DNA of 64,000 nt from Burkholderiales bacterium. GTDB lineage: Bacteria > Pseudomonadota > Gammaproteobacteria > Burkholderiales > SG8-39. The stretch's first letter is position 1. Each line of letters opens with the position of its first letter. The stretch is from positions 499 to 64,498 of the forward strand of contig DASSLQ010000194.1 in the NCBI GenBank assembly GCA_035689325.1. Direction: 5' to 3'. A model generated the notes under the pieces. The model saw nothing but the letters and a program-made list of their open reading frames with translations. It searched no databases and was not told where the DNA came from. This document shows, in pieces, positions 18,353-60,702 of this stretch. The position numbers and the translations under genes were made by a program.

Positions 18353-19110
18353 TTCTTGGGCTTCAGGTGCGCGGAGGCCTCCTCGTCCACCCGCTCCCAG
18401 ATCTCCCGCGCCATCGGATCGCGCGTCTCCTCGAGGATATGTCCGACCAAGCCGACCGCGCGCGCCATCACGCCCAGGCCCTTGACGATGCGCCAATCGA
18501 GGCCCAGTTCGCAGGCGAGTGCGCCGATCGCGCCGGTGGCGTTAAGCGTGATGCTGCGCGTCGCGGCGATCTCCTCCATCAGGCGGCAGTACTTGCCGTA
18601 GTGCCCGGTCTCGCGCGCGATCTCGAAAAGGCGCGCGCTGCGCGGATCGATCGGCTTGTGGATCGGGTGGCCAAGGCCCGGCATGCGCTTGTTTTCCGCG
18701 AGCACTGTCCTCGCGTCCTTGCCGCTGGCGACGGCGTCGGAAAGGATGCGCGCCACGCCTTCCATCGACCCGACGAACACGCTGCCCAGGCCGAGCAGGC
18801 CGCCTGCGACGGCAGCTTGCAGCGCCTCCGGCGCGCCCAGGTAGGTTAGGCGCGCGACAAGCGCGCTTGGCGTAACGCCGTGCTCGACCAGCGTCACGAC
18901 CATGGCGTTAAACATCTTTGACTCGCCGGCGCTCGGCACGCGGCCGGTGAGCTCGAGGAACGCCATGTCGCCGAGGTTGAGGCTGCCGAGAATCTCGCCC
19001 GGCAGGTCCCTGCCGCGCACCACGATCCGGTCCACGGTGGACCAGGCGAGGTCGGATTTCAGGGGCTTGCGCGCCATCGAAGCCGAACTATAGGCGCCGG
19101 CGCCACCCAT
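18349..19110 (-). CDS. Short citrate-synthase-family protein (citryl-CoA lyase-like)
   Basis: The sequence LVEHGVTPSALVARLTYLGAPEALQAAVAGGLLGLGSVFVGSMEG...PGLGHPIHKPIDPRS matches this family by eye. The start is either ATG 19110 or ATG 19077; the -10 geometry favours 19077 (see findings). Confidence 0.75.
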   Translation of the reverse strand: MGGAGAYSSASMARKPLKSDLAWSTVDRIVVRGRDLPGEILGSLNLGDMAFLELTGRVPSAGESKMFNAMVVTLVEHGVTPSALVARLTYLGAPEALQAAVAGGLLGLGSVFVGSMEGVARILSDAVASGKDARTVLAENKRMPGLGHPIHKPIDPRSARLFEIARETGHYGKYCRLMEEIAATRSITLNATGAIGALACELGLDWRIVKGLGVMARAVGLVGHILEETRDPMAREIWERVDEEASAHLKPKK

Positions 19111-19146
19111 GACCCGCCGCCCAGACCAGTTGTCAGCTTGTTCAAT

Positions 19147-19161
19147 ATTACTCTGAGTAAT
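19147..19161. promoter_or_regulatory. 7-1-7 perfect palindrome ATTACTC-T-GAGTAAT in the AT-rich region upstream of pilG
   Basis: Read directly in the 126-bp intergenic region 19111-19236, the most AT-rich stretch I noticed in the window. It is a candidate operator. Confidence 0.3.
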
Positions 19162-19236
19162 GAATTATTTCACTTAAAGAAGGTTCACTAAATGCCAGAA
19201 TCCACGAAGGAACTGACCGTTTAGGGGACAACGCTT

Positions 19237-19656
19237 GTGAGCCAGGCCGCGCAATTGGAGCAGCGCGACGCAGGACCTATCAAGGTCCTGGTCATCGATG
19301 ACAGCAACACAATCCGGCGCAGCGCCGAAATGTTCCTGCGCCAAGCCGGCTACGAAGTGATTCTCGCCGAAGACGGTTTCGATGCGCTCGCGAAGATCGC
19401 GGATCACCAGCCGCGCCTGATCTTCGTCGACATCATGATGCCGCGCCTGGACGGCTATCAGACGTGTGCGCTCATCAAGCAGAACCCGAAGCTCAAGGCG
19501 ACGCCGGTCATCATGCTCTCGAGCAAGGACGGCGTGTTCGATCGGGCGCGCGGCCGCCTCGCGGGCTCCGACCGCTATCTCACCAAGCCCTTCACGAAGG
19601 AGGGGCTGATCGCGGCAGTCACCGAATACCTAAAACCGTCTTCCATCGCTTCCTGA
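19237..19656 (+). CDS. pilG: PilG-type single-domain response regulator
   Basis: The sequence closely matches the PilG I remember: KVLVIDDSNTIRRSAE...DGFDALAKIADHQPRLIFVDIMMPRLDGYQTCALIK...PVIMLSSKDGVFD...YLTKPF. It has a GTG start with AGGGGA upstream. Confidence 0.9.
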   Translation: MSQAAQLEQRDAGPIKVLVIDDSNTIRRSAEMFLRQAGYEVILAEDGFDALAKIADHQPRLIFVDIMMPRLDGYQTCALIKQNPKLKATPVIMLSSKDGVFDRARGRLAGSDRYLTKPFTKEGLIAAVTEYLKPSSIAS

Positions 19657-19666
19657 AAGGCACCGC

Positions 19667-20032
19667 ATGGCCATCAAGAAAATACTGATCGTCGACGACT
19701 CGCCCACCGACCGGCAGGTCCTGAGCGACATGCTCTCCAAGAGCGGCTTCAAGGTCTCTACTGCTGAGAGCGCGGAAGACGCCATGGTGAAGGTGAAGGA
19801 GTCACGCCCCGACCTCGTCCTGATGGATGTCGTGCTGCCGGGGCAGAACGGCTTCCAGGCGACGCGCGCGCTGACCCGCGATGAGAGCACGAAGAACATT
19901 CCGATCATCCTGTGCACGAGCAAGAGCCAGGACACCGATCGCGTGTGGGGTCTGCGCCAGGGTGCGCGCGACTACATCGTGAAGCCGATCAATCAATCTG
20001 AGCTGCTGGCGAAGATCAGCGCCCTCGGCTGA
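19667..20032 (+). CDS. pilH: PilH-type single-domain response regulator
   Basis: MAIKKILIVDDSPTDRQVLSDML...DLVLMDVVLPGQNGFQATRALT...DRVWGLRQGARDYIVKPI. Confidence 0.9.
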   Translation: MAIKKILIVDDSPTDRQVLSDMLSKSGFKVSTAESAEDAMVKVKESRPDLVLMDVVLPGQNGFQATRALTRDESTKNIPIILCTSKSQDTDRVWGLRQGARDYIVKPINQSELLAKISALG

Positions 20033-20562: not shown

Positions 20563-21689
20563 AGCGACACATTGCGACATTGCTTGCGGCGGCAGCGCTC
20601 GGCGCGCCATTCGCATGGGCCGAACCAGGCGTCATGCCGAACCGGATTTTGCTCGGTCAGGCCGCCGTCTTCAGCGGCCCGGCGGCGCAGCTCGGCATCC
20701 AGATGCGTAACGGCATCAAGACGTATTTCGATTACGTTAATGCGAACGGCGGCGTGCACGGGCGCAAGCTCGAACTCGTCACCGAGGATGACCGATATGA
20801 GCCGGCGATCGCGCCCTCGGCGAGCAAGCGGCTGATCGAGGAGCAGAAGGTGTTTGCGCTGCTTGGCTACGTCGGCACGCCGACGGGCGCGGCACATCTG
20901 CCGGTGACCACCGCAGCGAAGGTGCCGCTGGTCGGCATGTTCACCGGCGCCGAGATCCTGCGCGTGCCGATGAACCGCTACGTGTTCCACGTGCGCGCGA
21001 GCTATTACGACGAGACCGAGAAGATCGTCGAGCAGGTGGTGTCGACCGGCGGCAAGAAGATTGCGGTCTTCTACCAGAACGACGCGTACGGCGAGGCCGG
21101 CCGCAAAGGCACGGAGCTCGCGCTTACCAAGCGCGGCATGAAGATCTATGCCAGCGGCACGGTCGAGCGCAACACCGTCAAGGTCGACCAGGCGGTAAAG
21201 ACGATCAACGCGTCCGAGCCCGACGCCGTGGTCATGGTCAGCGCCTATACCTCGTGCGCGGAATTCATCCGCGAGATGAAGAAGGCGGGTAGCGGCGCTA
21301 CGTTCTACAACGTGTCGTTCGTCGGCAGCAAGGCGCTTGCCGATGCGCTCGGCACCGATGGCAGCGGCGTCGCCATCTCCCAGGTGGTGCCGTTTCCGTG
21401 GAGCTTGTCCGTGCCGGTGGTGAAGGACTACCAGCAGCTTTCGAAGAAGGCCGGCCTTACCGACTACAACTTCAGCGCGATGGAAGGTTTCCTTACCGCG
21501 AAGGTGATGGTCGAAGGCCTGAAGCGCGCCGGCAAGAACCCGACGCGCGAGGGGCTGGTCGATGCGCTCGAGGCCATGCGCGACGTGGACCTGGGGGGCT
21601 TCTACATCAGCTATTCGCCGACAAACCATGCCGGCTCGAAGTTCGTCGACCTGACGATCATCGGGCGCAACGGCAAGTTCCTGCGCTAG
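20559..21689 (+). CDS. Periplasmic type-1 solute-binding protein (Leu/Ile/Val/amide-binding family) embedded in the chemosensory operon
   Basis: ATG 20559 overlaps the pilI stop (ATGA). The Sec signal is MKRHIATLLAAAALGAPFAWA. The 376-aa product has PBP1 features (GQAAVFSGPAAQLG..., NANGGVHGRKLELVTEDD). It is the C-terminal part of ORF 20460..21689. Confidence 0.85.
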   Translation: MKRHIATLLAAAALGAPFAWAEPGVMPNRILLGQAAVFSGPAAQLGIQMRNGIKTYFDYVNANGGVHGRKLELVTEDDRYEPAIAPSASKRLIEEQKVFALLGYVGTPTGAAHLPVTTAAKVPLVGMFTGAEILRVPMNRYVFHVRASYYDETEKIVEQVVSTGGKKIAVFYQNDAYGEAGRKGTELALTKRGMKIYASGTVERNTVKVDQAVKTINASEPDAVVMVSAYTSCAEFIREMKKAGSGATFYNVSFVGSKALADALGTDGSGVAISQVVPFPWSLSVPVVKDYQQLSKKAGLTDYNFSAMEGFLTAKVMVEGLKRAGKNPTREGLVDALEAMRDVDLGGFYISYSPTNHAGSKFVDLTIIGRNGKFLR

Positions 21690-29781: not shown

Positions 29782-30687
29782 CTAAACCGGATCCCAGCTG
29801 AAGACCTCCTGCGTGCGCTCGAGCGCGTAGAAATGCGCGCGCAGCGCCGGCATCGCATGCTCGGCGATCGCCGCGGCGCTCCAGCCGCCCTCGCGGTGCA
29901 CCGAGCGCAGCGGCCGGTTCTGCGACATCAGAAAAAGCTCGTTCGCGCGTACCGCAAAGATCTGCCCGCTGACATCGCGCGCCTCGTCAGAGGCGAGATA
30001 CACCGCGAGCGGCGCAATCTTCGCGGTTTCCATGCTTTTCAGCTTTTCCACCCGTGCTTGCTGTTCCGGCGTCTCGGTCGGTATCGAGCCGATCATCCGG
30101 CTCCAGGCGAACGGCGCGATGCAGTTCGAGCGTACGTGGTACCTGGCCATGTCGAGCGCGATGGACTTGGAGAGGCCGACGACCCCGAGCTTGGCAGACG
30201 CATAGTTCGCCTGACCGAGATTTCCCACCAGCCCCGACGTCGATGTCATGTGGATATACGAGCCCGACTCCTGTGTCTTGAAGTGCGGCGCCGCGGCGCG
30301 CGCCACGTAGAACGAGCCGTTGAGATGTACGTCGATCACCGCGCGCCATTCCTCGACCGACATATTGAAGAAGAACCGGTCGCGGAGGATGCCGGCGTTG
30401 TTCACCACCGCATCGAGGCGCCCGAAGCCGTCCAGCGCCGCCTGCACGATGCGATTCGCCGAGGCCCAGTCCGCCACGCTGTCAACGTTGGCAACGGCCT
30501 CGCCGCCCGCGGCCCGGATCTCATCCGCCACGCGCTGCGCAGGTGCGCTGCTCGCGCCTTCGCCCTTCACCGACGTGCCGAGATCGTTGACCACGAGCTT
30601 CGCGCCCGCCGCGGCCATCGCCAGCGCAAAGTCGCGGCCAATGCCGCCACCGGCGCCGGTGACGAGCACGACCTTGCCTTTTAGCAT
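29782..30687 (-). CDS. SDR, MFE-2-type (3-hydroxyacyl-CoA dehydrogenase-like)
   Basis: KVVLVTGAGGGIGRDFA, NNAGI and YASAK are all canonical. ATG 30687 (MLKGK...) is preferred. The tracked start at 30714 would overlap the divergent gene. Confidence 0.85.
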   Translation of the reverse strand: MLKGKVVLVTGAGGGIGRDFALAMAAAGAKLVVNDLGTSVKGEGASSAPAQRVADEIRAAGGEAVANVDSVADWASANRIVQAALDGFGRLDAVVNNAGILRDRFFFNMSVEEWRAVIDVHLNGSFYVARAAAPHFKTQESGSYIHMTSTSGLVGNLGQANYASAKLGVVGLSKSIALDMARYHVRSNCIAPFAWSRMIGSIPTETPEQQARVEKLKSMETAKIAPLAVYLASDEARDVSGQIFAVRANELFLMSQNRPLRSVHREGGWSAAAIAEHAMPALRAHFYALERTQEVFSWDPV

Positions 30688-30692
30688 CGCCG

Positions 30693-30699
30693 TATTATG
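30693..30699. promoter_or_regulatory. Shared AT-rich core giving TATTAT (+) and CATAAT (-) -10-like hexamers for a divergent pair
   Basis: On the + strand, TATTAT 30693-30698 is followed by 9 nt and ATG 30708. On the - strand, CATAAT 30699-30694 is followed by 6 nt and ATG 30687. Neither start has a Shine-Dalgarno sequence. Confidence 0.35.
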
Positions 30700-30707
30700 C
30701 GCGCGCG

Positions 30708-32774
30708 ATGCCATCGAGCCTCGACGCCGCCCTCAATCCCGCGTCCGTAGCGATCATCGGCGCTTCCGACAACCCGCACAAGGTCGGCGGCCGCCCGCTG
30801 CTCTATCTGCAGCGCTACGGCTATGGCGGCGCGATCTATCCGATCAATCCGGGCCGCGCCAGGGTCCAGGGTGTGCGCGCGCTTGCGCGCATCGAAGATG
30901 CGCCGCAGCCGCCGGATCTCGCGATCATCGCGATCGCCGGCAATGAAGCGGTCGCTGCCGTCGAATCCTGCGCCGCGCGCGGCGTGAAAGTGGCGGTGGT
31001 GATGACCTCGGGCTTCGCCGAGACGGGTGAGGAGGGCGCGCGGGCGCAGGCGCGCATGGCGGCGGCAGCGCGAGCCGCCGGCATGCGCCTCATCGGCCCG
31101 AATTGCCAGGGACTCGCCAACTTCGCGACCGGCATGGTGGCCAACTTCTCCACCATCTTCCATGAGCTCGAAGGACGCGACGGGCCGGTGGCGATCGTCA
31201 GCCAGAGCGGCGCGAACTCGCAGGCGATCTACGCGCTGCTGCGCGAGCAGGGCCTGAGCGCGCGCCATGTGCACACCACCGGCAACGAGGCGGACGTCAC
31301 GGTCGCAGATCTCGCCGCCGCGGTCGTGCGTGACCCGGGCGTGCGGCTCGTCCTGCTCTATATGGAAGCGATCAAGGATCCAATGCTGCTCGCGCACGCC
31401 GCTGCCGGCGCCCGGGTGCGCGATGTTCCGATCGTCGCGCTGAAGGCCGGCCGCACGGCGAGCGGCCAGCGCGCCGCCCGCTCGCACACCGGCGCGCTCG
31501 CCATCGAGGATCGCGTAGTCGACGCCTTTTTCGAGCGCTGCGGCATCTGGCGCGCTCGCGATCCGCAGGAGCTGGTGCGCGCGGCCGAACTCTACCTTGG
31601 CGGACACCGCCCGCGCGGCAAGCGCCTCGCGTTCGTCAGCCACTCCGGCGCGAGTTGCGTGATGGCCGCCGATCACGCCGAGCGCCGCGGCATCGCACTC
31701 GCGCCGATAGCGGCGCCCGCGAAGGCCAGGCTGCGCAGCGCGTTGCCCGGCTTTGCGTCGCTCGAGAACCCGATCGACGTGACCGGTGCGCTGCTGAGCG
31801 ACTCTGGCCTGCTCGGCGCGGTGCTGCCGATCGTCGGCGACGATGCGCAAGCCGATCTGCTGCTCGTCGCGCTTCCGATCGCGGGCGCCGGCTATGACGT
31901 GCCGCGCTTCGCGCGTGATGTCGCGCAGTTCCAGCAGACCTATTGCATCGCAACCGCAGTAGCGGCGCCGCAGGCTGCCGTGCGCCAGGCGTTCGCCGAC
32001 GCGGGCGTCGCGACCTTTGCGCGCGAAGGCGAAGCGATGGACGCGCTTGCGCAGCTTGCTGATCACGCTGCGCTCTTGCGCCGCCCGGCACCGGCACCGC
32101 TACGGTGCATGGCGCTGCCCGACAGGACGCGCTTCCTCAGCGAGGCCGAGAGCCTCGCGCTGCTCGCGCAGGCCGGGCTACCGGTGATTGAGCACCGCCT
32201 GTGCCGCGACGAGCGCGAGCTCGAGCGCGCGCTCGCCGCGCTCGGCGCCGACGTCGTGCTGAAGGCCTGCTCGCCCGACCTGCCGCACAAGAGCGACCAT
32301 GGCCTCGTCGCCATCGGGCCTGCCGAACCGCGCGCCGAGTACCGGCGCCAGCGCGAGCGCTGCCTCGCGCTCGGCGCACGTTTCGACGGCGTGATCGTGG
32401 CGCGCCGCGCGCGCGGCGGCCGGGAGCTCGCGCTCGGCGCCCGGCTCGACGCGCAATTCGGGCCGGTCGTGCTGGTAGGCGATGGCGGCATATACCTGGA
32501 GGCGCTGAAGGACTACCGCCTGCTCCTTGCGCCCTGCACCGAAGAGGAGGTGCTGGCCAAGCTCGCCGAGCTGCGCATCGCGCCGCTGCTTGGCGCGCTG
32601 CGCGGGCAGCAGCCGCGCGACGTGCGCGCGCTGGCCCGCATGGCAGTCAAGCTTGGCGAGGCGCTCATCGCGTGGGACGGCGCGGTCGCGTCCGTGGACA
32701 TCAATCCGGTGATGGTGTTTGAAACCGGCGCGCTCGCTCTCGACGCGCTGGTCGAGAGTCGCCCGGGCGACTGA
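30708..32774 (+). CDS. ADP-forming acyl-CoA synthetase (CoA-binding, succinyl-CoA-synthetase-like and ATP-grasp domains)
   Basis: The 688-aa product has LNPASVAIIGASDNPHKVGG, GPNCQG, SQSGA and a C-terminal ATP-grasp-like region. Confidence 0.85.
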   Translation: MPSSLDAALNPASVAIIGASDNPHKVGGRPLLYLQRYGYGGAIYPINPGRARVQGVRALARIEDAPQPPDLAIIAIAGNEAVAAVESCAARGVKVAVVMTSGFAETGEEGARAQARMAAAARAAGMRLIGPNCQGLANFATGMVANFSTIFHELEGRDGPVAIVSQSGANSQAIYALLREQGLSARHVHTTGNEADVTVADLAAAVVRDPGVRLVLLYMEAIKDPMLLAHAAAGARVRDVPIVALKAGRTASGQRAARSHTGALAIEDRVVDAFFERCGIWRARDPQELVRAAELYLGGHRPRGKRLAFVSHSGASCVMAADHAERRGIALAPIAAPAKARLRSALPGFASLENPIDVTGALLSDSGLLGAVLPIVGDDAQADLLLVALPIAGAGYDVPRFARDVAQFQQTYCIATAVAAPQAAVRQAFADAGVATFAREGEAMDALAQLADHAALLRRPAPAPLRCMALPDRTRFLSEAESLALLAQAGLPVIEHRLCRDERELERALAALGADVVLKACSPDLPHKSDHGLVAIGPAEPRAEYRRQRERCLALGARFDGVIVARRARGGRELALGARLDAQFGPVVLVGDGGIYLEALKDYRLLLAPCTEEEVLAKLAELRIAPLLGALRGQQPRDVRALARMAVKLGEALIAWDGAVASVDINPVMVFETGALALDALVESRPGD

Positions 32775-32798
32775 CGGGCGAAAGCCGAGGGCTATAAT
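32771..32798 (+). promoter_or_regulatory. Sigma70-like promoter for etfB: CTGACG-N16-TATAAT
   Basis: The -35-like hexamer at 32771-32776 overlaps the upstream stop. TATAAT at 32793-32798 lies 9 nt from ATG 32808. No Shine-Dalgarno sequence is present. Confidence 0.4.
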
Positions 32799-32807
32799 TT
32801 TCTCGCC

Positions 32808-33557
32808 ATGAAGGTCCTCGTCGCCGTAAAGCGTGTCGTCGATTTCAACGTCAAGGTCCGCGTCAAGGCCGACAATACCGGCGTCGAGACCGCGAACGTC
32901 AAGATGTCCATGAATCCCTTCGACGAGATCGCCGTCGAAGCGGCGGTGCGGCTGAAGGAAGCGGGCGGCGCGACAGAGATCGTCGCCGTGTCCTGCGGCG
33001 TCGCCCAATGCCAGGAGACACTGCGTACCGCGCTTGCCATCGGCGCCGACCGCGCCATCCTGGTCGAGACCAGCGCCGAGCTGCAGCCGCTCGCGGTGGC
33101 GAAGCTGCTGAAGGCCGTCTGCCAGAAGGAGTCGCCGCAGCTCGTGATCATGGGCAAGCAGGCGATCGACGACGACGCGAACCAGACCGGCCAGATGCTC
33201 GCGGCGCTCCTTGGCTGGCCGCAGGCCACGTTTGCCTCCAAGATCGAGCTCGCCGCGGGCAAGGCAAGCGTGACGCGCGAAGTGGACGGTGGCCTGGAAA
33301 CGCTGTCGATCAAGCTGCCGGCCGTGATCACCACCGACCTGCGCCTGAACGAGCCGCGCTACGTCACGCTGCCGAACATCATGAAGGCGAAGAAGAAGGC
33401 GCTGGAAACGTTGAAGCCGGAAGCGCTCGGCGTCGATGTGTCGCCGCGCCTCGCGACACTCAAGGTGCTCGAGCCGCCCAAGCGCAAGGCGGGCGTCAAG
33501 GTGGCCGACGCCAAGGCCCTCGTCGACAAGCTGCGCAACGAAGCGAAGGTGCTCTAG
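32808..33557 (+). CDS. etfB: Electron transfer flavoprotein beta subunit
   Basis: [51 protein letters not shown]... Confidence 0.95.
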
Positions 33558-34496: not shown

Positions 34497-36271
34497 GCAC
34501 CTACCAAGCGCCGCTCAAGGACATGAAGTTCGTGCTGCACGAGCTCGCCGGGCTTGAACAGCTGGCCAAGCTCCCGGGCTATGAAGAGGCCTCGCCCGAC
34601 ACGGTCGACGCCATCTTAGAGGAAGCTGCGAAGTTTGCGACGGGAGTCCTTGATCCGATTAACTATTCTGGCGATCAGGAAGGCTCGACATGGGCCGATG
34701 GCGCGGTGCGCACGCCCAAGGGCTTCCGTGAAGCTTATACGCAGTTCTGCGAGGGCGGCTGGAACGCGCTGCCGTTCGAGGCCGAATGGGGCGGGCAGGG
34801 ACTGCCGCGTCTCGTCTCGACGCCGGTGCAGGAAATGTGGAAGAGCGCGAATCTGAGCTTCTCGCTCTGCCCGCTGCTGACGCAGGGCGCGATCGAAGCG
34901 CTGCTCTTGCGCGGCTCGGAGGAGCTCAAGCGCCGCTACCTGCCGAAGATGGTGGCGGGTAGCTGGACCGGCACCATGAACCTCACCGAGCCGCAAGCCG
35001 GCTCGGATCTTTCGCTCGTGCGCACGCGCGCGGAGCGCCAGGGCGATCACTACCTCATCTCTGGCCAGAAGATCTTCATCACCTACGGCGAGCATGACCT
35101 CGCGGAGAACATCGTGCACCTCGTGCTCGCACGCACGCCCGAGGCGCCGGAGGGGGTGAAGGGCATCTCGCTCTTCGTCGTGCCGAAGTTCATTCCGAAC
35201 GAGGACGGCAAGGCGGGCAAGCGCAACAGCGCGAAATGCGCCTCCATCGAGCACAAGCTCGGCATCCACGCGAGCCCGACCGCCGTCATGGTCTACGACA
35301 AGGCCGTGGGCTACCTCGTCGGCGAGGAGAACCGGGGCCTCGAATACATGTTCATCATGATGAACGCCGCGCGCTTCGCGGTGGGCCTGGAGGGCGTGGC
35401 GATTGCGGAGCGCGCCTTCCAGCGGGCCCTGGCGTTCGCCAAGGAACGCATCCAGGGCCGCGATCTCGTCCAGGGCGGCAAGCCCGTGCCAATCATTCGC
35501 CACCCGGACGTGCGCCGCATGCTGATGCTGATGAAGGCACAGACCGAGGCGATGCGCGCGCTCGCGTACACGACGGCAGCGGCCATGGACTACGCGCGCA
35601 AGCACCCGGACGCGGAAGCGCGCAAGCGCCACCAGGGGCTCGTCGACCTGATGATCCCGGTGGTGAAGGGCTGGTCTACCGAGACCGGCATCGAAATCGC
35701 CTCGCTGGGCGTGCAGGTACACGGAGGCATGGGATTCGTGGAGGAGACAGGTGCCGCGCAGTACCTGCGCGACGCACGCATCACCACCATCTACGAAGGC
35801 ACCACCGGCATCCAGGCGATGGACCTGGTTGGGCGCAAGATCGCGCGCGAGGCGGGCGCGACCGCAAAGGCATGGCTCGCCTCGCTCACGGCGCTCGACG
35901 CGGAGCTCGCCAAGTCGGCGAACGCCGACGTCAAGGCGCTGCGCGCCGAGCTCGCGCAAGGCGTGCAGGCGGTGAGCGATTGCGTGAACTACATCGTCGA
36001 GAGCAAGGACCCGCGCGCCACCTTCGCCGGCGCGGTGCCGTTCCTCAAGCTCATGGGCATCGTCGCCGGCGGCTGGCAGATGGCGCGCGCGGCGCTCGCG
36101 GCGGAGCGGCGCTTGAGCTCCGGGGACAAGGACTTCCTGCAGGCCAAGATCGCGACCGCACGGTTCTACGGCGATCATGTGCTGGTGCAGGCAAGCGCGC
36201 TGCGCGACACGGTGGTGAAAGGCGCGGCCGGGGTGCTGGCGGTTCCGGAAGAGCAGTTCCTCGCTGCGTAG
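34493..36271 (+). CDS. Large acyl-CoA dehydrogenase (about 590 aa, with the C-terminal extension domain)
   Basis: It has an ATGA overlap with etfA. The product includes [18 protein letters not shown] and NLTEPQAGSDLSLVRTRAERQGD. Confidence 0.9.
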   Translation: MSTYQAPLKDMKFVLHELAGLEQLAKLPGYEEASPDTVDAILEEAAKFATGVLDPINYSGDQEGSTWADGAVRTPKGFREAYTQFCEGGWNALPFEAEWGGQGLPRLVSTPVQEMWKSANLSFSLCPLLTQGAIEALLLRGSEELKRRYLPKMVAGSWTGTMNLTEPQAGSDLSLVRTRAERQGDHYLISGQKIFITYGEHDLAENIVHLVLARTPEAPEGVKGISLFVVPKFIPNEDGKAGKRNSAKCASIEHKLGIHASPTAVMVYDKAVGYLVGEENRGLEYMFIMMNAARFAVGLEGVAIAERAFQRALAFAKERIQGRDLVQGGKPVPIIRHPDVRRMLMLMKAQTEAMRALAYTTAAAMDYARKHPDAEARKRHQGLVDLMIPVVKGWSTETGIEIASLGVQVHGGMGFVEETGAAQYLRDARITTIYEGTTGIQAMDLVGRKIAREAGATAKAWLASLTALDAELAKSANADVKALRAELAQGVQAVSDCVNYIVESKDPRATFAGAVPFLKLMGIVAGGWQMARAALAAERRLSSGDKDFLQAKIATARFYGDHVLVQASALRDTVVKGAAGVLAVPEEQFLAA

Positions 36272-39883: not shown

Positions 39884-39938
39884 GTCGCCGATTGTACCGG
39901 GTCGGAACAATCGTGCCGCGCTCGGGTCGGATAGCCTA

Positions 39939-44512: not shown

Positions 44513-44515
44513 GCG

Positions 44516-44529
44516 CCGATTATAATCGG
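44516..44529. promoter_or_regulatory. Perfect 14-bp palindrome CCGATTATAATCGG carrying TATAAT on both strands
   Basis: On the + strand, TATAAT 44521-44526 is followed by 9 nt and ATG 44536. On the - strand, TATAAT 44524-44519 is followed by 6 nt and ATG 44512. There is no Shine-Dalgarno sequence on either side. Confidence 0.45.
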
Positions 44530-44535
44530 CGGCCC

Positions 44536-44933
44536 ATGTCGTCTCGCCGCAAGCTCGTGCACGTCGAGCGCATTCCGATCCGCTGGGGCGACATGGACGC
44601 GATGGGCCACGTGAACAACACGGTGTACTTCCGCTACATGGAGCAGGCGCGCATCGGCTGGTTCGACGCGCTCGTGCCGGGGGAAGAGGCGTGGAAGTCG
44701 ACCGGCATCGTCATCGCCAACGCCAGCTGCAACTTCAAGCGCGCGATCAATTACCCCGGCACGGTGGAAGTGCAGGTCTACGCCGGAGCGCCGGGCGGCT
44801 CGAGCGTGCCCACATTCTATGAGCTGCTGATCGGCGGCGAGCTGTACGCGGACGGCGCGGCGACCGTGGTGTTCATCGACATGGCGCGCCAGAAGCCGGT
44901 GCGCATCCCGCCAGCCATTCGCGAGCGCCTGCA

Positions 44934-47969: not shown

Positions 47970-49292
47970 CTACGCGAGGAGCTGCGCCACCGCGCGCGCG
48001 TAGCGCTCGGCCGCCTTGTCCTGCAGCGCATGCCGACGCTCGCGCACCACCCAGCGGCCAGCCACCATCACATCGCGCACCAGGTCGCTGACACCGGAGA
48101 AGACCAGCGCGTTGGCAATCGCGTCCCCCGTGCGCGGCGCGAGGTCCGGATGCTCGCCGTCGAGCACCACGAGATCGCCGCGCTTGCCGGGCGCGAGCGC
48201 GCCCATCTCGCGGCCGAGCGCCTGTGCACCGCCCGCCGCCGCTTCGAGCCAGAGCGTCGTGCCTACCGCGGCGGAGGTGGAGCTGATGTTGATGTTGCGC
48301 CGGCGTCCAACGAGGCGCTGGACATACTCGAGCAGGCGCAGTTCTTCCGCCGGGTCGCGCGAGACGTGGCTGTCGCCGCCGATGCCCCAGCGGCCGCTCG
48401 CGCCGCGATAACCGATGAGCGCAAAGATGCCGTCGCCCAGGTTCGCCTCGGTCGTCGGGCAAAGGCCCGCCACGGCGCCGCTCGCCGCGAGGCCGGTCGC
48501 CTCGGCCGCGTGCAGGTGCGTCGCGTGCACCAGGCACCAGCGGCCATCGACCGGGCAATTCTCGAGCAGCCATTCGACCGGGCGTTTGTGCAGCGCGAGC
48601 GTGCATTCCTCGACCTCGCGCGTCTGCTCGGCCGCGTGGATGTGAATCACGCTGCGCTCGTCCACCGCGGCCACCAGCGCCTTCAGCGACTCCGGATCCA
48701 CCGCGCGCAGCGAGTGCGGCGCCACGCCGGCGTTGACGTCCGCGCTGCGCGGAACGCGCGCGGCGATGTCGAGCACCGTGCGCACATCGCTCGCGAAGCG
48801 CCGCTGCCGCGGTTCGAGCGGCTTTGCGCCGAAGCCCGACCAGCGGTAGAGCGAGGGCAGGAGAGTGATGGCGATGCCGGTATCGCGCGCCGCGGCGAGG
48901 TGCTGGTCGACCATCTCAGACGGATGGTGCACGTAGTGGAACTCGGCGACCGCGGTGTAGCCATGCTGCAGCATCTCGATATAGAGCTGCGCGGCAATCG
49001 CCTGCGCCTGCTCCGGCGTGAGCCGCTCCATGAACTGGTACATGAGCTCGCGCCAGGACCAGAAGTCGTCGTGCGCCGCGGCGCGCACCTCGGTAAGGCC
49101 GGCCATCGCGCGCTGGAACGCGTGCGAGTGCAGGTTCGCCATCCCCGGCAGCACCGGGCCCGCAAGGCGCTCCGCGCCCTTCGCCGCAGCGCCCGGCTCG
49201 ACAGCGGTGATGGTGCCGTCCTCGACCGTGATGCGCACGTCGCGCGCCCAGCCCGAAGGCAGCAACGCCTCGCGCGCGAAATACGTTTTCAC
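47970..49292 (-). CDS. hutF: Formimidoylglutamate deiminase
   Basis: (M)[32 protein letters not shown]...[18 protein letters not shown]. It has a GTG start. Confidence 0.9.
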
Positions 49293-49295
49293 GTC

Positions 49296-49306
49296 GCTAT
49301 CATAGC
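49296..49306. promoter_or_regulatory. 5-1-5 palindrome GCTAT-C-ATAGC centred between the hutF and hutI start codons
   Basis: On the + strand, TATCAT 49298-49303 is followed by 6 nt and ATG 49310. On the - strand, TATGAT 49304-49299 is followed by 6 nt and GTG 49292. The whole intergenic region is only 17 bp. Confidence 0.4.
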
Positions 49307-49309
49307 CAG

Positions 49310-50491
49310 ATGGACGACGCCGTCTGGCTGAACGCGCGGCTCGCCACCATGGCGGGACCGGTGATCCGCGACGGCGCGCTCGCCGTCAGCGCCGGCCGCA
49401 TCTCCTGGGTCGGCGAGCGGCGCGAGTGGCAGGGCGACGCGCGTATCGAGCACGACGCCCGCGGCGCGTGGATCCTGCCCGGCTTCGTCGACTGCCATAC
49501 GCACCTGGTTTACGCCGGCAGCCGTGCGCACGAGTTCGAGCTGCGGCTGAAGGGCGCAAGCTACGAGGAGATCGCCAAGGCGGGCGGCGGCATCCTCTCC
49601 ACCGTGCGCGCGACGCGCGCCGCTTCGCAGGATGACTTGCTGTCTCTCGCGCGGCGGCGGCTGCGCTCGTGGATTGCGGAAGGCGCGGCGGTGGTCGAAG
49701 TGAAGTCCGGCTACGGCCTCGATCGCGACACCGAGCTCAGGATGCTGCGCGCCGCGCGCGAGCTCGATGGCGTGACGGTGAAGACCACGTTCCTGGGCGC
49801 GCACGCCCTGCCCGAGGAATACAACGGGCGCGCGGACGCCTATATCGACTTCGTCTGCGACGACGTGCTGCCGGCCGCGGCCGCGGAGAACCTGGTCGAT
49901 GCGGTAGACGCCTTCTGCGAGCGCATCGCCTTCAGCCGCCACCAGACCGCGCGTGTCTTCGAGACGGCGAAGCGGCTCGGCCTGCCGGTGAAGCTGCATG
50001 CCGATCAGCTGTCTGACCTTGGCGGCGCTGCGCTCGCTGCAAAGCATGGCGCACTTTCCGCAGATCACCTGGAGTACACGAGCGAGGCAGGTATCGAGGC
50101 GCTCGCGCGCGCCGGCAGCGTCGCCGTGCTGCTCCCCGGCGCATTCTATTTTCTGCGCGAGACGCGCCTTCCGCCGATCTCGGCCTTGCGCAGCCATCAC
50201 GTGCCGATCGCGCTGGCGACGGATCACAATCCGGGCTCGTCGCCGCTTTCCTCGCCGCTCCTCGCGATGAACATGGCATGCACGCTGTTTCGGCTGACGC
50301 CCGAGGAAGCGCTTGCCGGATTCACGGTGCACGCGGCGCGCGCGCTTGGAATGCAGTCATCGCACGGCACGCTGGAAGCCGGCAAGGCGGCCGATCTTGC
50401 ACTCTGGGAGATCGAATCGCCGGCCGAGCTCGCCTACGCGATCGGCGCCAATCCGTGCGTCGGCCGGGTGCGCGCCGGCGCCCTTCAGTGA
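49310..50491 (+). CDS. hutI: Imidazolonepropionase
   Basis: [12 protein letters not shown]...[40 protein letters not shown]. Confidence 0.95.
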
Positions 50492-55571: not shown

Positions 55572-57223
55572 TTCGCGAGCGGCAGGTCGAGGCCTTGCGC
55601 GCGCGCGCAGGCGAGCGCCGCCTCGTAGCCGGCGTCGGCGTGGCGCATCACGCCGCTCGCCGGATCGTTCCACAGCACGCGCTCGATGCGCCTTGCGGCT
55701 GCCTCGGTGCCGTCGCAGACGATAACCTGCCCCGCGTGCTGCGAATAGCCCATGCCGACGCCGCCGCCGTGATGGAACGAGACCCACGTAGCGCCGCTCG
55801 CGCAGTTGAGAAGCGCATTGAGCACCGCCCAGTCCGAAACCGCGTCCGAGCCGTCACGCATCGCCTCGGTCTCGCGGTTCGGGCTCGCCACCGAGCCGGC
55901 ATCGAGGTGATCGCGGCCGATGACGATCGGCGCCTTGAGCTCGCCGCTTGCCACCATCTGGTTGAACGCCAGCCCCGCGCGATGCCGCTGGCCGAGGCCG
56001 AGCCAGCAGATGCGCGCCGGCAATCCCTGGAAGCGGATGCGCCTGCTGGCGAGGTCGAGCCAGCGCCCGAGCGCTTTGTCTTCCGGGAACAGCTCGCGCA
56101 CCTTCGCATCCGTGCGCGCGATGTCCTGCGGATCCCCGGACAGCGCCACCCAGCGGAACGGGCCTTTGCCGACGCAGAAGAGCGGCCGCACATACGCCGG
56201 CACGAAGCCCGGATAGTCGAACGCGTTTTTCACGCCCGCGTTCTTCGCCTCCTGGCGGATGTTGTTGCCGTAGTCGACGCAGGGGACGCCCATCGCCTTG
56301 AAGCCGAGGATCGCGCGCACGTGCCGGGCGATCGATTCGCGCGCTGACAGGGCAACTTCCTCCGGCTCTTTTTCTCTGAGCGATTTCCATTTGCTGAGCG
56401 ACCAGTGCTCCGGCAGATAGCCGTGCGCCGGGTCGTGCGCGGAGGTCTGGTCTGTGACCAGCGCCGGTCGGAACTGCGAGCTTTGCGCGCGCTTCAAAAA
56501 CTCGGGCACGAGCTCGGCGGCATTGCCGAGCAGGCCGATGGAAATCGACCGGCCCGCCTGCTGCAGCAGGGCGGCGGCCTCGTCCACGGTTTTCGCCTGC
56601 GCGTCGAGATAGCCGGTCTTGAGCCGCATGGCGATGCGCTCTGGATCGCATTCGATCGCGATCATCGACGCGCCGTTCATCGTCGCCGCGAGCGGCTGCG
56701 CGCCGCCCATGCCGCCGAGCCCGGCGGTAAGGATCCATTTCCCCGACCAGTCGCCAGCGCAATGCTGGCGCCCGGCTTCGGCGAACGTCTCGAACGTGCC
56801 CTGCACGATGCCCTGGCTGCCGATGTAGATCCAGGAGCCCGCGGTCATCTGCCCGTACATCATCAGGCCCTTGCGGTCGAGCTCGTCGAAGTGCTCCCAG
56901 GTCGACCAGGCCGGAACCAGATTGGAGTTGGCGATGAGCACGCGCGGCGCATCGGCATGCGTGCGGAAGACGCCGACGGGCTTCCCCGACTGGACGAGCA
57001 GCGTCTGGTCGGCCTCGAGGCGCTTGAGAGCGGCGACGATCGCGTCGTAGCACTCCCAGTTGCGAGCGGCCTTGCCGATGCCGCCATAGACGACGAGCTC
57101 CTCGGGTCGCTCGGCGACCTCCGGATCGAGGTTGTTCATCAGCATGCGCAGCGGCGCTTCGGTGAGCCAGCTCTTCGCCGAGAGCTGGGTGCCGCGCGGG
57201 GCGCGGATGACGCGGGGCTGCAT
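55568..57223 (-). CDS. hutU: Urocanate hydratase
   Basis: The 551-aa product has [17 protein letters not shown] and [22 protein letters not shown]. Confidence 0.95.
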
Positions 57224-57229
57224 GGCGCA

Positions 57230-57245
57230 ATGCTAGCGCTAGAAT
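57230..57245. promoter_or_regulatory. Back-to-back -10-like hexamers around the 10-bp palindrome CTAGCGCTAG
   Basis: On the - strand, TAGCAT 57235-57230 is followed by 6 nt and ATG 57223 (hutU), with no Shine-Dalgarno sequence. On the + strand, TAGAAT 57240-57245 is followed by a normal leader with GGGGGAG before ATG 57273. Confidence 0.35.
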
Positions 57246-57272
57246 GGCGCGTCCATCGCGGGGGAGACCGAT

Positions 57273-58202
57273 ATGAAATGGCTGGCTTTGATTGCCGCCG
57301 CGGGCGTCGCGTTCGGCGCCCAGGCGCAGGAAAAAGTGGTGCTCGGGATGAGCGGCTGGACGGGCTTTCAGCCGCTGAAGCTCGCCGAGCTCGCCGGCAT
57401 CTTCAAGCAGCACGGCGTCGACATGGAGATCCGCTTCATCGCGCCGGTGCAGCGCTCGGCGGCGCTTGCCTCGGGCGCGCTTAATGCGGCGGCGACGACC
57501 GTGGATCAGCACATCGTCTGGACCTCCGCCGGCATCCCTACGGTGCAGGTTGCGCTCATCGACAAGTCGAACGGCGGCGACGGCCTCGCGGTGCGCAACA
57601 ACATCAGCTCGCTCAAGGAGCTGAAGGGCAAAACGATCAACGTCGATGGCCCGGGCACCGTGCAGCACTTCATGCTCTCTTACATCCTCGAGAAGAACGG
57701 GATGTCCATCCAGGACGTCACGCGCTCCACGCTCGCGGCGCAGCCGGCGGCGCAGGCCTTCGTCGCCGGGCAGGGCGATGCGGCGCTGACCTATGAGCCG
57801 TATCTCTCGACCATCCGGGCAAAGCCCGACGCGGGCAAGATCCTGGTGACGTCGAAGGAATATCCGGTGGTCGTCGACGTGCTGGTGTTCAAGAAAGACT
57901 TCATCGAGAAGAACCCGAAGATCGTAAGAGCGACGGTCGACAGCTTTTTCGAGGCGCTCGACTTGATCAAGCGCGAGCCCGACAAGGCCTACGAGATGAT
58001 GGGCAGCGTGGTGAAGCAGCCGGGCGACGCATTCGCCAAGTCTGCGGCATACATCTCGTGGCAGGACCGCGCCGCGAACAAGGCCTATTACGCCAAGGAC
58101 CACAAGCCCTTCGTCGACTTCGCGGTGCGCGTGCTGAAATCGACCAAGGTGATCGAGAAGGAGCCGAAGTCGGAAGAAATGGTCGACCTGCGCTTCCAGT
58201 AA
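57273..58202 (+). CDS. ABC transporter substrate-binding protein (NitT/TauT, NMT1-like family)
   Basis: The signal peptide is MKWLALIAAAGVAFGAQA. The 309-aa product includes GMSGWTGFQPLKLAE. Confidence 0.8.
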   Translation: MKWLALIAAAGVAFGAQAQEKVVLGMSGWTGFQPLKLAELAGIFKQHGVDMEIRFIAPVQRSAALASGALNAAATTVDQHIVWTSAGIPTVQVALIDKSNGGDGLAVRNNISSLKELKGKTINVDGPGTVQHFMLSYILEKNGMSIQDVTRSTLAAQPAAQAFVAGQGDAALTYEPYLSTIRAKPDAGKILVTSKEYPVVVDVLVFKKDFIEKNPKIVRATVDSFFEALDLIKREPDKAYEMMGSVVKQPGDAFAKSAAYISWQDRAANKAYYAKDHKPFVDFAVRVLKSTKVIEKEPKSEEMVDLRFQ

Positions 58203-58203
58203 G

Positions 58204-58974
58204 CTGGAACCGCTAAAGCCCGTCTCGCATCGCGCCCGGCTGCTGCTGGGCGCGTCGTTCTTCGCGCTGTTCTTCGCCGTCTGGGCGCTCGCCACCTTCG
58301 GCGGGCTGGTGGACGCGATGTTCCTGAAGGACCCGCTCTACACGCTGCGCACGGGCGTCAGTCTCTTCCGCGAGTTCGGCTTCAGCAGGGACGTCGGCAT
58401 CACCGTGTTCCGCGTGGTCGGCGGCTTCATTCTCGCCGCGCTGGTCGCGGTGCCGCTCGGCATCCTGATGGGCGCATATAAGCCGGTGGAAGCGTTGCTC
58501 GAGCCGTTCGTCTCCTTCGCACGCTATCTGCCGGCGTCGGCGTTCATCCCGCTGCTGATTCTGTGGGCGGGGGTGGGCGAGAAGCAGAAGCTCGCGGTGA
58601 TCTTCATCGGCTCGGTGTTCCAGATCATCCTGATGGTCGCGGTGATCGTCGGTTCGACGCGCCGAGACCTGATCGAAGCGGCCTACACCCTCGGCGCGGA
58701 TTCGGGCGCTATCGTGCGCCGCGTGATGCTGCCCGGCGCCGCGCCGCAGATCGCCGAGTCGCTGCGCCTCGTGCTCGGCTGGGCATGGACCTACGTGATC
58801 GTCGCCGAGCTGGTCGGCGCGGAGAGCGGCATCGGCCACATGATCATGGACAGCCAGCGGTTGCTCGACACCGGGCAGATGATCTTCGGCATCTTCTGCA
58901 TCGGCGTCATCGGCCTGATTTCGGATTTCATCTTCAAGTGGGCGAACCAGCGCCTCTATCCATGGGCCTTCTGA
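58204..58974 (+). CDS. ABC transporter permease (NitT/TauT family); start codon unresolved
   Basis: The first canonical start is GTG 58309. However, TM1 (ARLLLGASFFALFFAVWALATFGG) is encoded upstream in frame, after the stop at 58150-58152. Only CTG codons are available there, the first at 58204. Confidence 0.75.
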   Translation: MEPLKPVSHRARLLLGASFFALFFAVWALATFGGLVDAMFLKDPLYTLRTGVSLFREFGFSRDVGITVFRVVGGFILAALVAVPLGILMGAYKPVEALLEPFVSFARYLPASAFIPLLILWAGVGEKQKLAVIFIGSVFQIILMVAVIVGSTRRDLIEAAYTLGADSGAIVRRVMLPGAAPQIAESLRLVLGWAWTYVIVAELVGAESGIGHMIMDSQRLLDTGQMIFGIFCIGVIGLISDFIFKWANQRLYPWAF

Positions 58975-59729
58975 TCGACGGCGTCGCGCACCAGTTTCCC
59001 GGCGTGCACGGCGGGCCGCCGACGCAGGCGCTCGAGCGCACCGGGCTCAGCGTCGCGGACAACGACTTCATCGCCGTCCTCGGGCCCTCGGGCTGCGGCA
59101 AGTCGACGCTGCTGCGCATCGTCGCCGGGCTGGAGAAGCCGACGACCGGGCGCGTGCTGCTCGACGGCCAACCCGTTACTGGTCCGGGCCCTGATCGCGG
59201 CATGGTGTTCCAGTCCTACACGCTTTTCCCCTGGCTCACGGTGGAGCAGAACATTCTGTTCGGCTCACGCGCGACGCCCGAGCGGGCGAAGCAGCTCATC
59301 GGTCGCGTCGGGCTGCGCGGGTTCGAGCGCCACTACCCGAAGATGCTTTCCGGCGGCATGCAGCAGCGCACCGCGCTTGCGAGGGCGTTGGCGAACGATC
59401 CGAAGATACTGCTGCTGGACGAACCCTTCGGCGCGCTCGACAACCAGACGCGCGCGCTGATGCAGGAGCTCTTGCTCGGCATCTGGGAAGCCGACCGCAA
59501 GACCGTGCTCTTCGTGACGCACGATATCGACGAGGCGATCTTCATGGCGAACCGCGTCGCGGTGCTCTCGGCGCGGCCGGGACGCATCAAGGCTGACGTG
59601 CGCATCGAGCTGGCGCATCCGCGCCATTACACGATGAAGACCAACGCACAGTTCTCGGCCTATAAGGCGCAGCTCACCGAGGAAATTCGAACCGAGGCAA
59701 TGAAGGCCGTCGAGATGCAGCAGGCCTGA
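58962..59729 (+). CDS. ABC transporter ATP-binding protein (NitT/TauT family)
   Basis: ATG 58962 lies within the 3' end of the permease gene. Walker A is GPSGCGKST, the signature is LSGGMQQR and Walker B is LLLDEP. Confidence 0.9.
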   Translation: MGLLIDGVAHQFPGVHGGPPTQALERTGLSVADNDFIAVLGPSGCGKSTLLRIVAGLEKPTTGRVLLDGQPVTGPGPDRGMVFQSYTLFPWLTVEQNILFGSRATPERAKQLIGRVGLRGFERHYPKMLSGGMQQRTALARALANDPKILLLDEPFGALDNQTRALMQELLLGIWEADRKTVLFVTHDIDEAIFMANRVAVLSARPGRIKADVRIELAHPRHYTMKTNAQFSAYKAQLTEEIRTEAMKAVEMQQA

Positions 59730-59754
59730 GAGGGCGCTGCGCTAAGATCGGCGC

Positions 59755-60702
59755 ATGGCGCTCGCGTTGCCGAAGATCGATGACCTGCTGTTGCTCGACA
59801 TGCACGTGCACGTCGGGCCCGAGTTTCTGCAGCGGCGCTACACCGCGCAGGCGCTGATGGAGGAGGGTCGCCGCGAGGGGTTCGGCGCGGTGATGAAGAA
59901 CCATTTCCAGCCGACGACCGCCTGGGTCGCGCAGCAGGCGCGCGCGGACGACAAAGTGAGGTTTGCGGGTGCGATCGTGCTGAACGCCGCCATCGGCGGC
60001 GTCGACGATCACGCGATCCGCTCCCTCATGTCGGGCTGGAAAGGCGATGTGCGCGCGCCGGATCCGAACCGGGGCGGGGCGGTCGTGTGGATGCCGACGC
60101 TGTCGACGGAGGCGCATCTCAACCTCTACGGCCGCCGCGAGATGCCGGAAGCCTGGGGCGTGAAGGGCAAGTACTCGCGCCTCGTGCCGATCGGCGCCGG
60201 CTACCGGCTGGATGAGACCGACGCGAAAAGCATGGCGGCGCTGGAGCGCATGCTGACGGCGCTCGCCGAGAACGATCTCACGCTCGCCACCGGGCACCTG
60301 AACGCGCAGGAGACCGTAGCGCTCGTGCGCCGCGCGCGCGCGCGCGGCATTCGCCGGATCATCATGACGCATCCGCTGTTCCAGGCGACGAACCAGGCGA
60401 TCGACATGCTCGCGAGGCTGTGGCGCGATTACGGCGCCTACAGCGAATTGGCCTTCGTGAACATCGCGATGGACCATCTCAGCTACGAGGCATACGTCGA
60501 CGTCATCCGCGCCGTGTCGCCGGAGGGCGTGATCCTCACGACGGACCTCGGTCAGGTGATGAACATGAAAGTGGCCGACGGCTGGCGCGAGTTCATGGCC
60601 GAGCTCAAGAAGCGCGGCGTGAAAGACGACGACATCGCGCGCATGGCGGTGTTGAACCCGCACCGCCTGCTCTACGGTGCGGAGCTCGCGGCACGCCTCT
60701 AG
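59755..60702 (+). CDS. Metal-dependent hydrolase-like protein (amidohydrolase/TIM-barrel type), family uncertain
   Basis: The N-terminus has DMHVHVGPE, with GHL and THP motifs later. TAAGAT lies 6 nt upstream of the ATG, and there is no Shine-Dalgarno sequence. Confidence 0.6.
   Translation: MALALPKIDDLLLLDMHVHVGPEFLQRRYTAQALMEEGRREGFGAVMKNHFQPTTAWVAQQARADDKVRFAGAIVLNAAIGGVDDHAIRSLMSGWKGDVRAPDPNRGGAVVWMPTLSTEAHLNLYGRREMPEAWGVKGKYSRLVPIGAGYRLDETDAKSMAALERMLTALAENDLTLATGHLNAQETVALVRRARARGIRRIIMTHPLFQATNQAIDMLARLWRDYGAYSELAFVNIAMDHLSYEAYVDVIRAVSPEGVILTTDLGQVMNMKVADGWREFMAELKKRGVKDDDIARMAVLNPHRLLYGAELAARL

Follow-up and report, generated by a model that had tools for sequence, protein, structure and literature searches.

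Promoter boxes placed directly before the start codon have been described in several groups of bacteria. TA-led genes, which have a TANNNT hexamer approximately 10-12 nt upstream from the start codon and were equated with leaderless genes, are found in 9 of 71 Betaproteobacteria, in which they make up 2.8-10.6% of genes (Zheng 2011, BMC Genomics 12:361). In the genomes that form group C of GeneMarkS-2, 5.6% of Proteobacteria, a Pribnow box is 6-8 nt from the starts of first genes in 25-50% of operons (Lomsadze et al. 2018). Transcription starts have been mapped on the start codon or no more than a few nt from it, with a -10 element directly upstream of ATG or GTG, in Mycobacterium tuberculosis, M. 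smegmatis, Deinococcus deserti, and Burkholderia cenocepacia J2315. Differential RNA sequencing (dRNA-seq) of B. cenocepacia found the motif directly upstream of leaderless genes, approximately 90 of which are protein-coding and which are enriched for regulators. We analyzed a 64-kb stretch of DNA (hereafter the window; 67% G+C) from an uncultured soil Burkholderiales and found that 12 of its 57 genes have a -10-like hexamer 6-9 nt before an ATG or GTG start codon that lacks a Shine-Dalgarno (SD) sequence. The rule that ties the hexamer to the start codon is already published, and the window adds a lineage to a known type.

Eleven of these sites had been proposed in a preliminary description of the window as candidate starts of leaderless mRNAs, and every hexamer, start codon, and spacer was reproduced literally when we re-read the loci. 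We added a twelfth candidate, at which the start (GTG 6088) was set by coding potential only. The twelve sites, followed by one gene shown for contrast, are:

44510-44524, minus strand: ETF-QO; TATAAT 44524-44519, spacer 6, ATG 44512, the first start codon in the open reading frame (ORF)
44521-44538, plus strand: thioesterase (4HBT_2); TATAAT 44521-44526, spacer 9, ATG 44536; palindrome ATTATAAT in common with ETF-QO
30685-30699, minus strand: SDR; CATAAT 30699-30694, spacer 6, ATG 30687
30693-30710, plus strand: ADP-forming CoA ligase; TATTAT 30693-30698, spacer 9, ATG 30708
49290-49304, minus strand: hutF; TATGAT 49304-49299, spacer 6, GTG 49292
49298-49312, plus strand: hutI; TATCAT 49298-49303, spacer 6, ATG 49310
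57221-57235, minus strand: hutU; TAGCAT 57235-57230, spacer 6, ATG 57223
59743-59757, plus strand: DUF6282 protein; TAAGAT 59743-59748, spacer 6, ATG 59755
39881-39896, minus strand: Mpo1-like/DUF962; TACAAT 39896-39891, spacer 7, GTG 39883
32793-32810, plus strand: etfB; TATAAT 32793-32798, spacer 9, ATG 32808
19075-19092, minus strand: citryl-CoA lyase; TATAGT 19092-19087, spacer 9, ATG 19077; the weakest of the earlier eleven
6086-6102, minus strand: AMP-binding enzyme, the added candidate; TACCAT 6102-6097, spacer 8, GTG 6088
57240-57275, plus strand, for contrast: NMT1-type binding protein; TAGAAT 57240-57245, 27 nt before ATG 57273, which has a GGAG SD

The spacer is 6 nt at six of the sites, 7 nt at one, 8 nt at one, and 9 nt at four, and the start codon is ATG at nine and GTG at three. 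Most of the genes encode catabolic enzymes (the hut genes, ETF/ETF-QO, the CoA ligase, and the SDR). The gene identities given earlier were borne out by Pfam, with some changes of name: the gene called a hydrolase encodes a DUF6282 protein, the citrate-synthase-like gene is a citryl-CoA lyase in NCBI, and DUF962 is Mpo1-like. A spacer of 6 nt keeps the hexamer in frame with the start codon. The TAG of the hutU hexamer (57233-57235) and the TAA of the DUF6282 hexamer (59743-59745) thus also act as in-frame stops, and the frame that runs in from upstream ends at them, four codons ahead of the start.

The hexamers were strongly enriched immediately upstream of gene starts. We scanned both strands of the 64 kb for TANNNT, with spacers of 6-9 nt taken as the proximal class, and called genes with a 3-periodic Markov model of coding potential that does not use upstream motifs for choosing starts. 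There were only 143 TANNNT hexamers in the window, and 11 of the 57 called genes had one at a spacer of 6-9 nt (binomial P = 3e-7 relative to the rate in non-coding DNA and P = 9e-16 relative to ATG and GTG codons that are not starts). The CATAAT of the SDR gene lacks the T at position 1 and is not a strict match. Within 60 nt upstream of the genes, 12 of 26 TANNNT hexamers fell in the four positions 6-9 (of 55; P = 8e-8). Twelve hexamers agree with TATAAT at five or more of its six positions, and 8 of these abut a start codon; the perfect TATAAT is present three times, in each case 6-9 nt before a gene start. The share of genes with a site was 12/57, or 21% (confidence interval [CI] 11-34%), and that of first genes was 12/29 (CI 24-61%), both estimated from 64 kb.

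The start codons chosen at these sites agreed with those from independent sources. The caller, blind to the hexamers, picked the same start at 10 of the 11 earlier sites. Its one exception was the thioesterase, for which it chose GTG 44557 with a negligible difference in score; because conservation favors ATG 44536 (the ATG 9-10 nt past the hexamer is conserved in orthologues, and GTG 44557 is not), we take ATG 44536 to be the start. For 8 of the 12 genes, no ATG, GTG, or TTG of the open frame precedes the proposed start. The in-frame stop four codons upstream of hutU leaves that gene no alternative start, and DUF6282 has an equivalent stop inside its hexamer. Pfam domains start within a few residues of the N-terminus, and HutF_N aligns from residue 1 of hutF. 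Look-ups by exact sequence gave no record for hutU, etfA, ETF-QO, or P0002. NCBI start calls were available for two window proteins, P0002 (citryl-CoA lyase, 242 aa) and P0241 (CoA ligase, 688 aa), and the records of identical proteins have the same starts. The citryl-CoA lyase start is common to NCBI and the listed homologues of 88-95% identity (240-242 aa), hutI homologues of 89-93% identity were called at the same 393 aa, and gene boundaries called by JGI and ENA in relatives agree.

These findings bear on the possibility that the pattern is due to chance or to biased choice, with starts picked because an A+T-rich hexamer precedes them. Four of the sites do have an alternative in-frame start upstream, and one site is not conserved. 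Nonetheless, the agreement with the blind caller and with NCBI and JGI, the P values of 3e-7 to 9e-16, the eight starts that are the first possible in their ORF, and the conservation of sites described below effectively refute this explanation, which we consider extremely improbable.

The sites lack SD sequences and are found only before first or gapped genes. We measured SD strength as the energy of the duplex with the anti-SD sequence. The mean at the sites was -1.5 kcal/mol, compared to -4.9 kcal/mol at other first genes, which confirms the earlier claim that these starts have no SD; individual sites ranged from +1.3 to -5.0 kcal/mol, and genes with AGGAGG reached -12.1 kcal/mol. The preliminary description also named several first genes with strong SD sequences. 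We found AGGAGG at 6140 (dctP), 14524 (a 2Fe-2S gene), and 52463 (PQQ dehydrogenase), and GGAG at 57273; chpA (23820), however, is operon-internal and not a first gene. SD-less starts that abut a hexamer are therefore present beside SD-led first genes, as had been proposed, and the two initiation modes fit the dual model of GeneMarkS-2 group C. Comparing 29 first or gapped genes with 28 operon-internal genes in the window, we found a TANNNT 6-9 nt upstream of 11 of the former and none of the latter (Fisher P = 1.9e-4). Because the sites are only before first or gapped genes, we favor a promoter element over a translation signal; the same criterion serves in GeneMarkS-2 to tell promoter boxes and non-SD ribosome-binding sites apart (Lomsadze et al. 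2018).

The logo of the twelve sites (T11 A12 T8 a6 A11 T12) has invariant A2 and T6. Only the hexamer itself is A+T-rich, between G+C-rich flanks, which is the information profile of a -10 box as opposed to a stretch of general A+U richness. If the hexamers instead acted in translation, as a patch that is unstructured or bound by S1 and permits initiation without an SD on leadered mRNAs made from promoters inside the upstream genes, this could account for the absence of SD sequences and of -35 boxes, and for the slightly reduced structure of the 30 nt that follow the start codon. Such a patch would be expected before operon-internal genes too (0 of 28 have the hexamer) and does not predict that information is concentrated at T1, A2, A5, and T6, with G and C tolerated in the middle of the hexamer and G+C-rich flanks, or that the same core serves both strands at three divergent gene pairs. 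We consider a translation signal very improbable.

The hexamer and the length of the spacer were conserved in relatives that have diverged in sequence. The contexts of orthologues were taken from syntenic contigs. Among species representatives, uncultured Betaproteobacteria come nearest, with approximately 80% identity in ETF-QO, and protein searches of soil metagenomes added many closer relatives of 76-95% identity. The closest contigs are L165 (approximately 90% nucleotide identity to the window) and a single 150-kb contig that comprises L164 and L168 (approximately 87.5%), followed by L161-L163 (approximately 82%); L169 and L170 have 76-78% identity in the CoA ligase. A self-trained caller mis-set starts on the 20-kb relative loci, among them that of ETF-QO in L001-L003, and the relatives were therefore assessed by direct orthologue contexts and by an ORF-based scan that is independent of start calls. 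Pooled over relatives with approximately 88-90% nucleotide identity, there were no mismatches in 46 positions of hexamer cores and 12 mismatches in 57 spacer positions (Fisher P = 4.6e-4). In relatives that are 76-90% identical, the hexamer and spacer length were kept, and the spacer sequence and N-terminal codons drifted.

Individual sites had different degrees of conservation. Upstream of hutF/hutI, hutU, and DUF6282, the sequence was identical to that of the window and the first codons differed; this applies to the 17-nt hutF/hutI intergenic region and to hutU in both L164 and L165, and to DUF6282 in L165. ETF-QO, the thioesterase, and DUF962 kept the hexamer and spacer length with 3-4 spacer bases changed. 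L164 has the ETF-QO hexamer at spacer 6, L001-L004 and L025 have it at spacers 7-8, and the thioesterase ATG was 9-10 nt past the hexamer in L001, L003, L004, and L164 despite differing downstream codons. For DUF962, L164/L168 have TACAAT with spacer 7 and four of seven spacer bases different, L170 has TAGAAT with spacer 7, L169 has TAGAAT with spacer 6, and L004 has TAAAAT with spacer 7. The 20-nt intergenic region between the SDR and CoA ligase genes has CATAAT with spacer 6 and TATTAT with spacer 9 in five genomes (the window, L004, L168, L169, and L170), including two (L169 and L170) in which aldolase_II replaces the SDR on the minus side with the hexamer and spacing unchanged. The sequence of the 9-nt CoA ligase spacer varies over these five genomes, except that position 7 after the hexamer is G in all of them.

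Spacer length differed between some orthologues. In the window, L169, and L170, the etfB TATAAT is followed by a 9-nt spacer, and in L168 and L004 by a 6-nt one. Similarly, the hutF/hutI palindrome is kept in L025 with spacers of 9 and 9 nt, compared to 6 and 6 nt in the window. These orthologous spacers differ by exactly 3 nt (L168, approximately 12039-12056; L004, approximately 19295-19280; L025, 3576-3600), a step that may have no meaning or could, for instance, reflect toleration of a leader of 3 nt. With relatives added, spacers of 6, 7, 8, 9, and 10 nt were all found. The spacers look bimodal in the window, at 6 versus 9 nt, and we make no claim of two spacer classes, as the relatives fill the range from 6 to 10 nt.

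More distant relatives have the other type of gene start. The ETF-QO genes of Dechloromonas and others have a GGAGA SD and a TATAAT-like box 25-35 nt upstream, DUF962 in L010 and L066 has a GGAGG SD, and etfB in L001 has TATAAT 35 nt upstream together with GAGGAG. A metagenome scan with hutU yielded only relatives that are at most 81% identical, all of which have a GGAG-type SD; these were used as an outgroup. Other high-G+C betaproteobacterial loci analyzed by a uniform procedure had no excess of proximal hexamers; their small peak at spacer 6 is in line with a low leaderless background.

Enrichment, the logo, restriction to first genes, the absence of SD sequences, and conservation all favor the view that the hexamers are -10 elements near start codons. 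We think it likely that they are sigma-70-type -10 boxes that start leaderless or near-leaderless mRNAs. Each hexamer would be the -10 element for the housekeeping sigma-70-type RNA polymerase, 6-9 nt before an SD-less ATG or GTG. With spacers of 6-7 nt, the predicted transcription start is the start codon's first base, and with spacers of 8-9 nt, it is 1-3 nt ahead of that base. Such an mRNA would have no usable 5' leader, and the ribosome would therefore bind directly to the 5'-terminal AUG or GUG. The remaining operons would have ordinary leaders and GGAG-type ribosome-binding sites, such that two designs of gene start coexist.

Several results weigh against this explanation. There was no recognizable -35 element at 11 of the 12 sites, where the best matches were 2-4 of 6 positions, as at random positions, and none of the twelve had the TG of an extended -10. 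The canonical sigma-70 arrangement (a -35 at 16-18 bp or an extended -10) is not general at the sites; etfB is the sole site to pass a two-hexamer scan, with a -35 of CTGACG and a gap of 16 nt. Other high-G+C bacteria that are rich in leaderless genes also have poorly conserved -35 elements. The missing -35 weakens the identification of the hexamers as -10 boxes and is compatible with it. The reduction of structure at the 5' end was weak (P = 0.035 at 30 nt, and no signal at 45 or 60 nt). The sites of etfB and DUF6282, which appear to be internal promoters, are 33 and 25 nt after genes on the same strand (for etfB, the stop codon of the CoA ligase gene), so that longer transcripts may cover these two genes as well. 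The hutU gene of L002 has no clear hexamer, and the citryl-CoA lyase hexamer is absent in L161-L163, in which the gene is 88% identical. Finally, at the four sites with a 9-nt spacer, the A of the start codon is the tenth base after the hexamer, which is at the edge of the usual range of start sites in E. coli. The optimum distance of the start site after a -10 is 7 bp according to the literature on bidirectional promoters. For this class, a leader of 2-3 nt is more likely than a strictly leaderless mRNA, and the invariant G at position 7 suggests a 3-nt leader for the CoA ligase.

These last points raise the possibility that the hexamers are real -10 boxes and that many transcripts, above all those with spacers of 8-9 nt, have a leader of 1-4 nt. 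Translation would then use a short-leader, SD-independent variant or simply be inefficient, rather than follow the strict 5'-terminal AUG pathway. We give this possibility somewhat less than an even chance. It would accommodate the four sites of twelve that have 9-nt spacers, the G that is constant after TATTAT in five genomes, and the occurrence of 6 nt in some relatives and 9 nt in others for the same gene (etfB; with L025, also hutF/hutI). At the 6-nt sites, however, the A or G that opens the start codon itself falls at the canonical +7 position, and published surveys count 5' untranslated regions of up to 5-10 nt as leaderless. A short leader is a refinement of the explanation by leaderless or near-leaderless mRNAs and does not replace it.

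The intergenic region upstream of citryl-CoA lyase has one other feature. The block at 19164-19181 (minus strand, TTCTTTAAGTGAAATAAT), which contains AATAAT, is the only well-conserved part of the 159 nt between pilG and citryl-CoA lyase and is common to L161-L163, where the proximal TATAGT is missing. It may be the real promoter, giving an mRNA with a leader, or a regulatory site, for one of the two operons. In one further relative genome, the citryl-CoA lyase gene is operon-internal.

At five of eight divergent gene pairs in the window, the predicted -10 boxes overlap or are back to back. The separation of the transcription starts was predicted by placing each start 7 nt after its hexamer. 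The five pairs are:

hutF/hutI: core TATCATA, 49298-49304; gap 17 nt; predicted starts 18 bp apart, as are the start nucleotides themselves
SDR/CoA ligase: core TATTATG, 30693-30699, with CATAAT as one arm; gap 20 nt; predicted starts 18 bp apart
ETF-QO/thioesterase: core ATTATAAT; gap 23 nt; predicted starts 21 bp apart
6088/6140: overlapping hexamers; gap 51 nt; predicted starts 23 bp apart
hutU/57273: back-to-back hexamers; gap 49 nt; predicted starts 29 bp apart

A one-base offset between the hexamers of hutF/hutI, and between those of SDR/CoA ligase, pairs A2 in one hexamer with T6 in its partner; the offsets at the other three pairs are 2, 4, and 10 nt. In the first three pairs, one near-palindromic A+T-rich core would serve both genes and fills most of the gap, such that the whole intergenic region of 17-23 nt consists of a shared -10 core and two spacers. 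At 6086-6140, the TACCAT of GTG 6088 overlaps by 2 nt a TAAGAT that is 33 nt before the ATG of dctP (6140), which is led by AGGAGG. Between hutU and the NMT1-type gene, a perfect 10-bp palindrome (57233-57242, CTAGCGCTAG) spans the TAGCAT of hutU and the TAGAAT of the NMT1-type gene, and the region is identical in L164 and L165. This palindrome may be bound by a hut regulator as its operator, or it may be no more than the symmetric center of two promoters placed back to back.

The same question applies to all the palindromic cores (ATTATAAT, TATCATA, and CTAGCGCTAG), which are perfectly or nearly palindromic and fully conserved, as would be expected if they were operators of dimeric regulators that are close to start codons due to short intergenic regions. 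We think this very improbable as an explanation of the sites: 7 of the 12 are outside palindromes (6088, 19077, 32808, 39883, 57223, and 59755) or in an imperfect one (30693-30699), there is no common operator sequence beyond TAnnnT, and symmetry of the -10 is itself a known cause of bidirectional promoters. Regulator binding and promoter function could coexist at these cores.

Bidirectional promoters in E. coli arise from the symmetry of the -10 element, and the commonest distance between the two starts is 18 bp, with 10, 23, and 29 bp also favored (Warman et al.; bioRxiv 10.1101/2020.01.31.928960; NAR 2026 gkag028). Two of our pairs, hutF/hutI and SDR/CoA ligase, have the pairing of position 2 with position 6 and a predicted distance of 18 bp, and 6088/6140 (23 bp) and hutU/57273 (29 bp) are also predicted to be at favored distances. 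In contrast, the 21 bp predicted for ETF-QO/thioesterase is not among the listed preferred distances, and here, unlike in the E. coli promoters, one or both transcripts would be leaderless. In a limited literature search, we found no description of divergent pairs that share one -10 and in which both mRNAs are leaderless; looser analogues are lysG/lysE of M. tuberculosis and qseC/qseM of Mesorhizobium.

Other features of the window were noted in the course of the analysis. Our caller, and JGI in relatives, place the start of the DUF885 gene (36219-36365) at ATG 36363. No SD or -10 box precedes this codon; conservation of the 50 nt upstream of it is of the coding type, the frame is open from 36219, and the codon in L170 is GTG. 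The GGDEF-EAL response-regulator gene that starts at GTG 39939 (39895-39941) is in neither initiation class, as it has no SD and no proximal TANNNT. Directly before this GTG is GGATAGCCTA, which has one change in L164/L168, one in L170, and is more diverged in L169. In the region 8980-9015, ATG 9013 is the best-scoring start of a gene whose true start is uncertain. The run GGAGGAGGAGG is 20 nt upstream of this ATG but already past the other candidate, TTG 8995, and neither codon therefore has a normally spaced SD. A gene for a periplasmic binding protein (20649-21689; Peripla_BP_5/6 in the orthologues of L161, L168, L169, and L170) is between a CheW-like gene and pilJ, within the pilG-pilH-pilI-pilJ-chpA cluster. 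It is an unusual passenger there and is kept in all the relatives that were fetched.

We suggest, with somewhat less than even confidence, that in this widespread lineage leaderless starts took the place of SD-led ones in approximately 40% of the transcription units, including central catabolic operons (hut, ETF/ETF-QO, and acyl-CoA metabolism), and that several divergent pairs were reduced to an intergenic region of 17-23 nt built on one symmetric -10 core, which would fire two leaderless mRNAs approximately 18 bp apart. The change in initiation would be recent enough to trace because orthologues in neighboring Betaproteobacteria keep GGAG and a distal -10. If this is true, then RNA polymerase in two orientations would compete for the same six to eight bp, and such a core would be a minimal module for bidirectional expression that links promoter symmetry with leaderless translation. 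With its 17 nt, the hutF/hutI region would offer a very compact setting for testing how the two orientations of a bidirectional promoter compete, and the orthologous SD-led and leaderless versions in related genomes form a natural series for the exchange of initiation modes. For annotation, a dual model of promoter box and ribosome-binding site is advisable for gene starts in this lineage, and the NCBI and JGI calls already agree at the starts examined.

Our findings leave current concepts unchanged and can be set beside three groups of known systems. The leaderless transcriptomes that have been mapped are backed by dRNA-seq and proteomics, whereas the sites in the window are predictions from sequence; the leaderless genes of B. 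cenocepacia are enriched for regulators, and those in the window encode mostly catabolic enzymes. Relative to the TAnnnT of Actinobacteria, the logo in the window is closer to TATAAT. Leaderless starts are apparently about as common in this proteobacterial lineage as in Actinobacteria, and they are in ordinary metabolic genes and not in regulators. Relative to the Betaproteobacteria of Zheng, the share of leaderless genes appears unusually high, at 21% compared to 2.8-10.6%, an estimate from a 64-kb sample. The sites differ from TA-led and group C genes in general in that the host is known as a metagenome-assembled genome of an uncultured Burkholderiales and in the sizeable class of 9-nt spacers. 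They share with both the short-spaced TANNNT or Pribnow box at first genes (in the published descriptions, centered about 10 nt before the start codon, with a 6-8 nt spacer), the absence of an SD, and the presence of SD-led genes in the same genome, and the proportion of first genes with a site, 12 of 29, is within the 25-50% of operons described for group C.

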